Positions 11,212 through 13,031 of a stretch of DNA of 27,589 bases are shown one piece after another. Made by a program: the position numbers and the translations under genes. Every line of letters starts with the position of its first letter. Position 1 is the stretch's first letter. The notes under the pieces are model-generated. The model was not told the origin of the DNA. It was given only the letters and a program-made list of their open reading frames with translations, and ran no database searches. Origin of the DNA: a virus (taxonomy: Duplodnaviria > Heunggongvirae > Uroviricota > Caudoviricetes); the IMG/VR virus record IMGVR_UViG_2563366982_000007. One strand, 5' to 3'.

Positions 11212-11224
11212 TCCTTCAAGACAT

Positions 11225-11256
11225 AATGCCCCTCAATTTGAGGGGCATTTCTTTGC
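11225..11256 (+). terminator. Rho-independent terminator after the peptidase gene
   Basis: Perfect 10-bp stem AATGCCCCTC / GAGGGGCATT with loop AATTT, followed by a T-rich run; begins 14 nt after the stop codon. Confidence 0.6.
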
Positions 11257-11608
11257 ACAAAAGTGCACAAATTTGCACAATTTTTTTGAACGACTTTTTG
11301 CCCTTCCGGCCCGCATGGCGGCTGGATCCGTCAAGGATCCGTGCGTGCACAAAAAACGCGTTTTTCCTGCGCGCAGGTGACGGGGGAACAGCCCGCGTTT
11401 CAGGGGGTAAACAGCATTCCCTGAACGATGTCGCAGAGACACAACAGAATGGCCATATTTCTCACGCTGAGCATGAAAAAGGCGTGAGGGCTTTTGATTT
11501 GATGGGGTGAAAGGTAAGGCCGTCAAAATCGCACTGAGGCAGCGAGAACATACAGTCAACGCGGTGGAATTGCGTAAGTGAAGTGGTCAACAAAAACTGG
11601 CCACCGAG

Positions 11609-12427
11609 TTAGAGTTTTTTCCAGTATCGATTTTCCGATTCGTTTGGTGGTAACCCACCATTATATTCGTGCGGTCTTAGTGCGCTGTAATATCCAACGA
11701 TATAGTCCGTTATTGCGTGAGCTGCATCGCTGAAGCTTACATAGCCCGTCGCCGGCACCCATTCGTTCTTCAGACTCCTGAAGAAGCGCTCCATTGGGCT
11801 GTTATCCCAGCAGTTTCCACGCCGACTCATACTCTGCCTGATCCGGTATCTCCACAGTAACTGCCGGAACTGCCTGCTCGTATAATGACTGCCTTGATCG
11901 CTGTGGAACATCACCCCGACGGGCTTACCACGGGTTTCCCATGCCATTTCCAGTGCTTTCATGGTAAGCCTGCTGTCCGGCGAGAACGACATGGCCCAGC
12001 CCACTGGTTTTCTTGCGAACAGGTCGAGAACAACGGCGAGGTACGCCCAGCGCTTACCCGTCCAGATATAGGTCACATCACCGCACCACACCTGATTTGG
12101 CTCGGTCACGGCGAACTGCCGTTCAAGGTAGTTAGGGATAGCAACATGTTCATGACCACCACGTTTATACCGGTAAGTCGGCTGCTGACAGCTGACCAGC
12201 CCCAGCTCTTTCATGAGTCTGCCAGCAAGCCAGCGCCCCATCTGGTAGCCTCTCTGGGTTGCCATTGTGGCGATGCTTCTTGCTCCGGCAGAGCCGTGGC
12301 TGATGCCATGCAGTTCAAGTACCTGGCTGCGTAATACAGCCCGTCTGCCGTCTGGCTTTTCAGGACGGTTTTTCCAGTATTTGTAGCTGCTGCGATGGAC
12401 CCCGAACACATGGCAGAGAGTGGCCAC
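11609..12427 (-). CDS. IS3-family transposase OrfB (DDE integrase-like catalytic domain), expressed as OrfAB fusion by -1 frameshift
   Basis: 272-aa ORF with DDE-transposase hallmarks ([36 protein letters not shown]). The frame stays open upstream toward the A6G slippery site. Confidence 0.85.
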
Positions 12428-12453
12428 AGGATAACGCGCCCTGAGTTTCCCGA

Positions 12454-12756
12454 TTATCGAGAACTGTTCAGGGAGTCTGACATCAAGAGCGCGGTAGCCT
12501 TTTTTAATATTTCATTTTCCATTTCAATACGTTGTAGCTTTTTCCTGAGCTCACGGATTTCAATTTGTTCCGGGGTAATAGGGGAGGCTTTTGGTGTTTT
12601 TCCCTGCCGCTCATCACGTAATTGTTTCACCCATCGCGTCATTGTGGAAAGGCCGACATCCATAGCGCTGGCTGCATCTGCCACGGTGTAATTCTGGTCA
12701 ACGACCAGTTGAGCGGATTCGCGTTTAAACTCTGCGCTGAAATTTCTTTTTTTCAT
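12454..12756 (-). CDS. IS3-family transposase OrfA (HTH and leucine-zipper)
   Basis: [53 protein letters not shown] is a typical IS911/IS3 OrfA. Start trimmed to the internal Met at 12756. Confidence 0.85.
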
Positions 12757-13031
12757 TATGGCACCTGTGTTGTTCTGAGGTGAGCATATCACCTCTGTTC
12801 AGGTGGCCAAATTCAGTAAACCACTTCAAAGAGTCTGACCGTCGATGGTGGCGATAAACTGGAAGGCGTCGTGAAATTATCTGATTGATACAGGAGCTGG
12901 AGAGCCGGGGCATAAATTTTTTATGCCCCGGCGAAGCAGCAGACAAGCGAAGCGCGTCAGCGATACGGCACCTTGCCGACCATACTTCATAAGTGCAAAA
13001 TACGAGCAAAGAAATCAATGGAGGCTGTCTT

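Follow-up and report, generated by a model that had tools for sequence, protein, structure and literature searches.

The window (the whole 27,589-nucleotide stretch of DNA that was analysed) is a P2-family prophage of the P88-like type (Xuanwuvirus, Peduoviridae), not P2 itself, and this prophage is integrated between ihfA and btuC. Table 1 lists the features of the locus. The IetA-like and IetS-like genes, which belong to a described defence pair, form the accessory block upstream of cos, and the perfect 12-bp hairpin behind them is probably the terminator of this hotspot operon. The late part of the window after terminase gene P holds scaffold, capsid, small terminase subunit (M), lysis and tail genes. 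Between the stop of the IetS-like gene (11211) and the stop of Q (13571) lies an intact insertion sequence, ISEc52 (11579-12828), so that the initial annotation was right in placing an IS within the interval from the hotspot to Q; the interval considered there ended at 13031, directly ahead of the ATG (13032) from which the next gene is annotated.

Gene order in the window prophage is the same as in P88, P88_4B11 and PhiR44_2, from which it differs by its own hotspot cargo (IetAS), by the IS, and by additional genes near attL and at 21337-23217. The flanks of the IS show 91-98% nucleotide identity with the cos region of these three phages and their relatives. When the IS and one AAG are removed, the window is colinear with PhiR44_2 at 99.3% identity over 1,200 bp. 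Leaving the IS aside, the segments that align in the region of cos and the late genes keep the order of PhiR44_2, at 96-97% identity, and the sole long stretch there that finds no counterpart is some 2 kb of additional sequence (21285-23282). P, M and Q are each complete as open reading frames and have the domains expected of them; the stretch that holds them is 97% identical to PhiR44_2 and colinear with it. The trans-acting packaging needs encoded inside the window are all intact; the tail genes past 27589 lie outside it. The tail-gene orientation in the prophage of E. coli M1/5 was considered as an inversion, and this was dropped as PhiR44_2 has the same orientation, which is normal for the group.

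Table 1. Coordinates of the prophage genes, the predicted cos elements, the spacer and the insertion sequence in the window.
Feature	Position	Strand	Remarks
Integrase	1109-2251		
Repressor-like HTH gene	within 530-3964		
Replication gene A	4895-7660		
IetA-like AAA ATPase, hotspot cargo	7841-8962	+	Pfam AAA; PADLOC IetA 1e-77
IetS-like S8 protease, hotspot cargo	8986-11211	+	Pfam Peptidase_S8; PADLOC IetS 1e-51
Perfect 12-bp hairpin	11225-11249	+	Inverted repeat, then TTTCTTTG
Three TGCACAA repeats	11254, 11264, 11274 (11254-11280)	+	10-bp phase, then T-run
Predicted cos core	11345-11401	+	GTGCACAAAAAA, dyad, cohesive end, then ~7 bp
Fourth TGCACAA repeat	11346	+	
Dyad within predicted cos core	11357-11375	+	
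Predicted cohesive end	11376-11394	+	GGTGACGGGGGAACAGCCC, G+C-rich, ~19 nt; ±2 nt
Left part of spacer	11402-11578		Non-coding; includes the 5' part of a 42-codon ORF from 11507
Target-site duplication AAG, left copy	11576-11578		Overlap of the two M1/5 alignments
ISEc52 (IS3 family)	11579-12828	-	Intact, 1,250 bp
Terminal inverted repeats of ISEc52	11579-11605 and 12802-12828		27 nt, imperfect; TGAAGTGG...CCACTTCA
orfB, rve (DDE) domain	11609-12427	-	Pfam, 1e-31
orfA, transposase	12454-12756	-	Pfam HTH_Tnp_1, 6.8e-14
A6G slippery site AAAAAAG	12499-12505	-	-1 frameshift, orfA/orfB overlap; read from the sequence
Target-site duplication AAG, right copy	12829-12831		Overlap of the two M1/5 alignments
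Right part of spacer	12832-12960		Perfect 13-bp hairpin at 12904-12932
Accessory gene, cos-Q slot	12993-13556	+	187 aa by ORF call; phrog_5091, 1.8e-67
Terminator-like hairpin between accessory gene and Q	13562-13582	-	
Portal gene Q, intact ORF	13571-14617	-	Pfam Phage_portal; agrees with M1/5 annotation
Terminase large subunit P, intact ORF	14617-16368	-	Pfam Terminase_6N, Terminase_6C, Terminase_5
Terminase small subunit M, intact ORF	18481-19281	+	Pfam Phage_term_smal, 1e-36

ISEc52 and its empty site

Many E. coli genomes have copies annotated as ISEc52, to which the element is 99.4-100% identical. Its inverted repeats are 78% complementary and end in 5'-TG...CA-3', and it matches ISEc52, an IS3-family element probably of the IS911 group, in size, ends, orfA/orfB arrangement, A6G site and 3-bp duplication, with no notable difference from known ISEc52.

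E. coli M1/5 carries the same prophage with the insertion site empty. Alignment of the M1/5 copy with the window gave 100% identity over 5240-11578 and 99.98% over 12829-18831, and the two alignments overlap by the 3 bp AAG. The insertion is therefore a clean and simple one, with exact boundaries, a 3-bp target duplication and a known empty site. Among 5,426 complete E. coli genomes, none had an IS at this site, and 1,099 had the uninterrupted 278-bp spacer around it; the absence of the IS from these 1,099 spacers could reflect selection rather than chance.

An ISEc52 copy 100% identical to that of the window is also present in M1/5, where it replaces the equivalent of window 530-3964 with the integrase, repressor and cox-like genes. 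ISEc52 is thus linked to loss of the integration-immunity region in the M1/5 lineage and hit no gene in the window lineage. The same prophage has been struck twice by ISEc52 in one lineage, and the window insertion appears to be the harmless one.

Predicted cos region left of the insertion

The cohesive ends of P2, 186 and P4 are 19-nt 5' extensions, with a shared core of 55 bp (Ziermann and Calendar 1990, as cited in PMC3931495, PMC9594776 and PMC9122126). In the P2 and 186 records the annotated ends are experimentally determined ones, and they fall between old/tin (or orf97) on one side and Q/W on the other. The window was aligned by MAFFT to the ends of P2, 186 and P4 in joined form. All four share a left flank of GTGCAyxAAAA followed by a short dyad ending in GCGCGCA or GCGGGCG, and the alignment placed GGTGACGGGGGAACAGCCC at 11376-11394 on the left side of the IS, where 13 of 19 positions agree, without gaps, with the P2 end GGCGAGGCGGGGAAAGCAC. 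The initial annotation had failed to see the 19-nt end by eye because the prophage is P88-like: even with up to 3 mismatches allowed, a search of the window for the P2 19-mer finds nothing.

An nhmmer profile built from the P2, P4 and 186 cos cores alone likewise found nothing significant in the window, so the assignment depends on intermediate prophage sequences. We fetched 52 loci encoding relatives of Q, one genome per species, and the P2/P4/186 profile was significant in 6 of them, each time next to Q. A profile of those six sequences searched over the whole window gave a single significant match, at 11345-11399 (E=3e-5). With the combined profile, 38 loci gave a match at E<1e-3 (the comparison of distances and conservation lists 37 of them); each had just one, located beside Q and on the same strand. 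Two subtypes of end can be told apart among these matches, GGTGACGGGGGAAC-AGCCC and GGCGAGGCGGGGGAGCAAGCGC. More than 120 viral contigs contain the exact core motif; the 120 that were fetched are all P2-like, and the motif lies upstream of Q in every one of them that includes the Q side. The layout seen in P2 and 186 is thus common to the 38 genome loci and the 120 viral contigs, and it bears out the expectation that cos lies in the interval between the hotspot and Q. The most divergent E. coli relative found, the AMSCJX04 prophage, shares only the cos core (~11345-11397) with the window.

The arrangement of short repeats points to the same position. Measured from 11376, the TGCACAA repeats of the window begin at -122, -112, -102 and -30, with none in 140 bp on the right, and 4 of the 10 TGCACAA copies in the window sit within these 99 bp. 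Measured from the first base of the cohesive end, TGCA[CT] in P2, 186 and P4 begins at -123/-124, -111, -101 and -29, again with none in 140 bp rightwards. In 36 other enterobacterial P2-like prophages the repeats stand at the same fixed offsets (mean 3.4 on the left versus 0.33 on the right), and the TGCACAA repeats are conserved in Citrobacter and Edwardsiella relatives. P4 retains the TGCAY repeats though its intervening sequence is unrelated to that of P2, and we therefore read the repeats as part of the packaging signal. The TGCACAA array at 11254-11280 is the proposed terminase recognition array, with TGCAY as the putative binding motif. These comparisons suggest that the four-repeat TGCAY array of the P2 family and P4 lies wholly on the right-end side of cos, so that terminase would bind on the other side of cos than it does in lambda, with its cosB.

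The predicted cos of the window resembles those of P2, 186 and P4 in lying between the accessory hotspot near gene A and the 3' end of the portal gene, in its predicted G+C-rich end, and in having a TGCAY ~29-30 nt upstream, a dyad, and three more TGCAY at about -101, -111 and -123. It differs in that its end GGTGACGGGGGAACAGCCC is of the second subtype, whose alignment to P2, 186 and P4 needs a length change of 1-3 nt, and in that its repeats are TGCACAA in strict 10-bp phase, while those of P2, 186 and P4 are TGCAT with 10-13-nt spacing.

In the literature searched we found no cos or physical-end data for P88-type phages or Xuanwuvirus, nor the motif itself, and for this reason we infer the cleavage site by comparison. 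None of the fetched contigs or records ends exactly at the motif. The start of the P88_4B11 record, equivalent to window 11299, was also considered as a terminus; it matches no conserved element and was treated as arbitrary. Among the 120 contigs there were no P4-like satellites with a P88-type cos and no homologues of psu, delta, sid or alpha. Judged from sequence comparison, the functional cos region would span ~11253-11401 and be intact, with nick positions predicted to within about 2 nt on either side.

A cargo slot between cos and Q

The IS is to the right of cos: its start is 184 bp from the predicted cohesive end and 177 bp from the right edge of the segment equivalent to the 55-bp core shared by P2 and P4, so it does lie next to cos, as had been surmised. 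Every element common to P2, 186 and P4 (the repeats, the dyad, the end and a few right-hand bases) falls within 11253-11401, to the left of the IS. The identity of window 5240-11578 to the IS-free M1/5 copy is complete, and cos and the repeats are not split, deleted or mutated. The initial annotation had proposed that the IS splits or displaces cos or the terminase recognition sequences. This is not supported by the position of the conserved elements, and destruction of the packaging signal is probably not what the insertion has caused. It had named as contrary evidence an intact cos on one side of the IS with normal spacing to Q; we found cos intact on one side of the IS, at a distance to Q of 2,195 bp versus 340 or 945 bp in close relatives.

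That distance varies naturally. Cos-to-Q is 124 to ~390 bp in most of the compared loci and 865-1,123 bp in three; for locus L054 it is 247 bp, the listed 1,968 bp being an artefact of a short flank. In the 120 viral contigs, close P88-like relatives show one of two distances, +340 or +945 bp. What separates the two classes is a ~635-bp cassette (12961-13595 in the window) that carries the 187-aa ORF; PhiR44_2 and M1/5 have this cassette and P88 lacks it. This accessory gene, annotated from ATG 13032 as 175 aa, has no Pfam or PADLOC match; a protein similar by eye, unaligned, is encoded in the same slot in Erwinia tracheiphila. E. coli DG351-2 has a different cargo of 583 bp in the same spacer, and a Symbiopectobacterium prophage has IS630-like remnants in the slot. 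The varied cargo and the natural variation in spacing indicate that the cos-Q slot is a natural cargo site. As the spacing varies and the slot regularly carries cargo genes, the distance to Q is unlikely to be a constraint on packaging.

Within the spacer, the 13-bp hairpin at 12904-12932 is probably the ancestral tQ terminator, since the same hairpin stands ~25 bp after the Q stop in P88. The 42-codon ORF that is split by the IS was rejected as a gene: its changes are mostly non-synonymous, a Salmonella locus (L015) has TAG at the codon of the IS site, and it has no PHROG match. The IS is an ordinary, recent insertion in a cargo-tolerant spacer of a common prophage type.

Consequences for packaging

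We propose a recent transposition of ISEc52, in a copy that looks active, to the non-coding DNA that separates cos from the operon of portal and terminase. Once packaged, the chromosome would carry the IS as a passenger, starting 203 bp after the first base of its left end. Terminase should recognise and cut cos as before, and the sole predictable effect on packaging would be that a genome already large for the family grows by 1,253 bp. We have good confidence in this reading as a whole, that is, ISEc52 in the spacer, cos intact on its left, cleavage unaffected, and the extra DNA as the only effect. P2 lysogens in which cos was knocked out have been engineered to yield virus-free transducing particles (PMC12239096). 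Those lysogens match the scenario envisaged in the initial annotation, with late genes expressed and self-packaging absent, but in them cos itself was removed, whereas the window prophage keeps an intact cos, with the insertion at a distance of 184 bp.

The extra DNA could have a cost of its own. With cos intact, the additional 1,253 bp might exceed the capacity or stability of a T=7 P2-type capsid, so that the prophage would excise, replicate and cut cos and yet give few or no infective particles, the predicted defect arising by a different mechanism. The attL core is at window 59-83, and the 25-bp direct repeat has its attR beside ihfA in M1/5; the window joined to the M1/5 right arm comes to an estimated ~38.2 kb without the IS and ~39.4 kb with it. 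The related phage records are 31.2-37.6 kb (just one is longer, at 40.3 kb, and has the look of a predicted prophage region), and the window prophage carries several extra cargo blocks. The length, however, is an estimate only, its right arm lying outside the window and being borrowed from a sister strain with a damaged copy, and 39.4 kb is ~5% above the largest related phage record; our literature search found no usable figure for the upper limit of P2 packaging. We regard an over-length genome as unlikely to be the explanation.

A second alternative is that the IS separates cos from an accessory cis element on the Q side, such as a cosB-like or bending-protein site, and makes the initiation of packaging less efficient. 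Lambda cosB is on the first-packaged side of cosN (see also PMC4669245), and cosmids with longer flanks around the P4 cos were reported to be transduced better (PMC9594776). P4, however, is packaged by the P2 terminase while sharing with P2 just ~7 bp right of the cohesive end in the joined-end alignment, and the repeated motifs are all on the opposite side of cos. In the 38-locus comparison, conservation across genera extends rightwards from the cohesive end as far as a G-run ~45 bp away and no farther, so that the IS, 184 bp away, lies outside the last block that the genera have in common. About 1,100 E. coli prophages show at least 90% conservation in the spacer, but this is about the conservation of the neighbouring genes. 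We consider such an element very unlikely.

That the P88-type cos lies elsewhere, for example where the linear P88_4B11 record (LR595891.1) begins, 77 bp left of the predicted end, or outside the interval altogether, with 11345-11401 being something else, is highly improbable: the P88-type end position is itself a prediction, but the AMSCJX04 prophage does not share the sequence around 11299, the 38-locus alignment, followed from ~11331, shows its first strong conservation at TGCACAAAAA and the core conserved throughout, the four TGCAY offsets agree with those that P2, 186 and P4 show from their experimentally determined ends, and a cos at 11299 would still be left of the IS and intact.

With cos read as intact and the IS as cargo beside it, the prophage should not be scored as cos-defective on account of this IS. 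The comparison also yields a cos prediction that can be put to use in P88-like (Xuanwuvirus) prophages; ~20% of complete E. coli genomes carry such prophages, and we found no published cos for them. It further yields a rule for locating cos in the P2 family: TGCAY at about -123, -111, -101 and -29, then a dyad, then the end. For the prophage itself we suggest, with low confidence, that either it packages with ISEc52 in its virions or the added 1.25 kb exceeds the capsid limit and fixes the IetAS prophage in place. If packaging works, ISEc52 would travel in virions 203 bp from the left end of the chromosome, a route for phage-borne spread of the IS. If the capsid limit is exceeded, the IetAS prophage would have become a fixed, non-transmissible defence island through its length and not through loss of cos.

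Repeat array at the packaging site

A TGCA[CT] array, with copies at fixed offsets, was common to P2, 186 and satellite P4 (ends in the fetched records L007-L010 and L014) and to the prophage in the window, and the same array was found in 36 other enterobacterial P2-like prophages among loci L015-L064. On the Q side of the cohesive end, toward the portal gene, copies were nearly missing across these elements. The array is probably the terminase recognition array; the searchable literature yielded no account of it. The linear record of the related Escherichia phage P88_4B11 (LR595891.1; L002, L004) has as its first base the equivalent of window position 11299, a position that coincides with no conserved element; the predicted cohesive end lies 77 bp to its right. 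This starting point probably does not mark a physical end of the phage DNA but was set arbitrarily.

Features of the prophage (window coordinates unless stated; offsets counted from the first base of the cohesive end)
Feature	Position	Remarks
att core repeat	59-83	25 bp
Two ORFs between attL and int	within 193-1137	inside prophage
IetA (AAA ATPase) and IetS (S8 protease) defence pair	7841-11211	strong PADLOC matches
TGCA[CT] array	11254-11352	four copies, offsets about -123, -111, -101, -29; right-end side of cohesive end
cos-Q cargo gene	12993-13556 (cassette 12961-13595)	175-187 aa; phrog_5091, function unknown
Extra ORF	21337-23217 (insertion 21285-23282, ~2 kb)	between lysis and tail-completion genes; DUF6645 protein in M1/5 annotation
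ISEc52 copy in M1/5	L067 39077-40326	in place of window 530-3964

Cargo genes and ISEc52 in the sister strain

Judging from the att core repeat, the prophage is integrated between ihfA and btuC. Of the two ORFs next to attL, the 176-aa product had weak, sub-threshold Pfam coiled-coil matches and is annotated as DUF1640 in the E. coli sister strain M1/5, and the 137-aa product had no matches. The IetA/IetS pair occupies the accessory hotspot adjoining cos, in agreement with the published cos-proximal defence hotspot of P2. The ~2-kb DUF6645 gene is absent from the related phage PhiR44_2 and is another cargo insertion, which enlarges an already large genome.

The M1/5 prophage (NZ_CP053296.1) is the same element as that in the window (99.98% identity). 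Its ISEc52 copy, identical to the window copy, replaces 3.4 kb carrying the integrase, repressor and cox-like genes. ISEc52 hit the same prophage independently in two lineages. The DUF6645 gene of the M1/5 prophage is frameshifted, and its gpD appears truncated.

The interval between cos and Q

The cos-Q interval is a second cargo slot, smaller than the IetA/IetS hotspot. Pfam and PADLOC searches gave no match for its protein in the window, and the phrog_5091 cassette is patchy across P88-like phages, being present in some and absent from others. An Erwinia tracheiphila prophage has, in the same slot, a protein that looks similar by eye (unaligned; L050 5070-5573).

In another P2-like prophage, that of Symbiopectobacterium purcellii (L019 5087-5919), the cos-Q ORFs resemble by eye remnants of an IS630/Tc1-type transposase. 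If they are such remnants, an insertion sequence would have landed independently in the same cos-Q slot.
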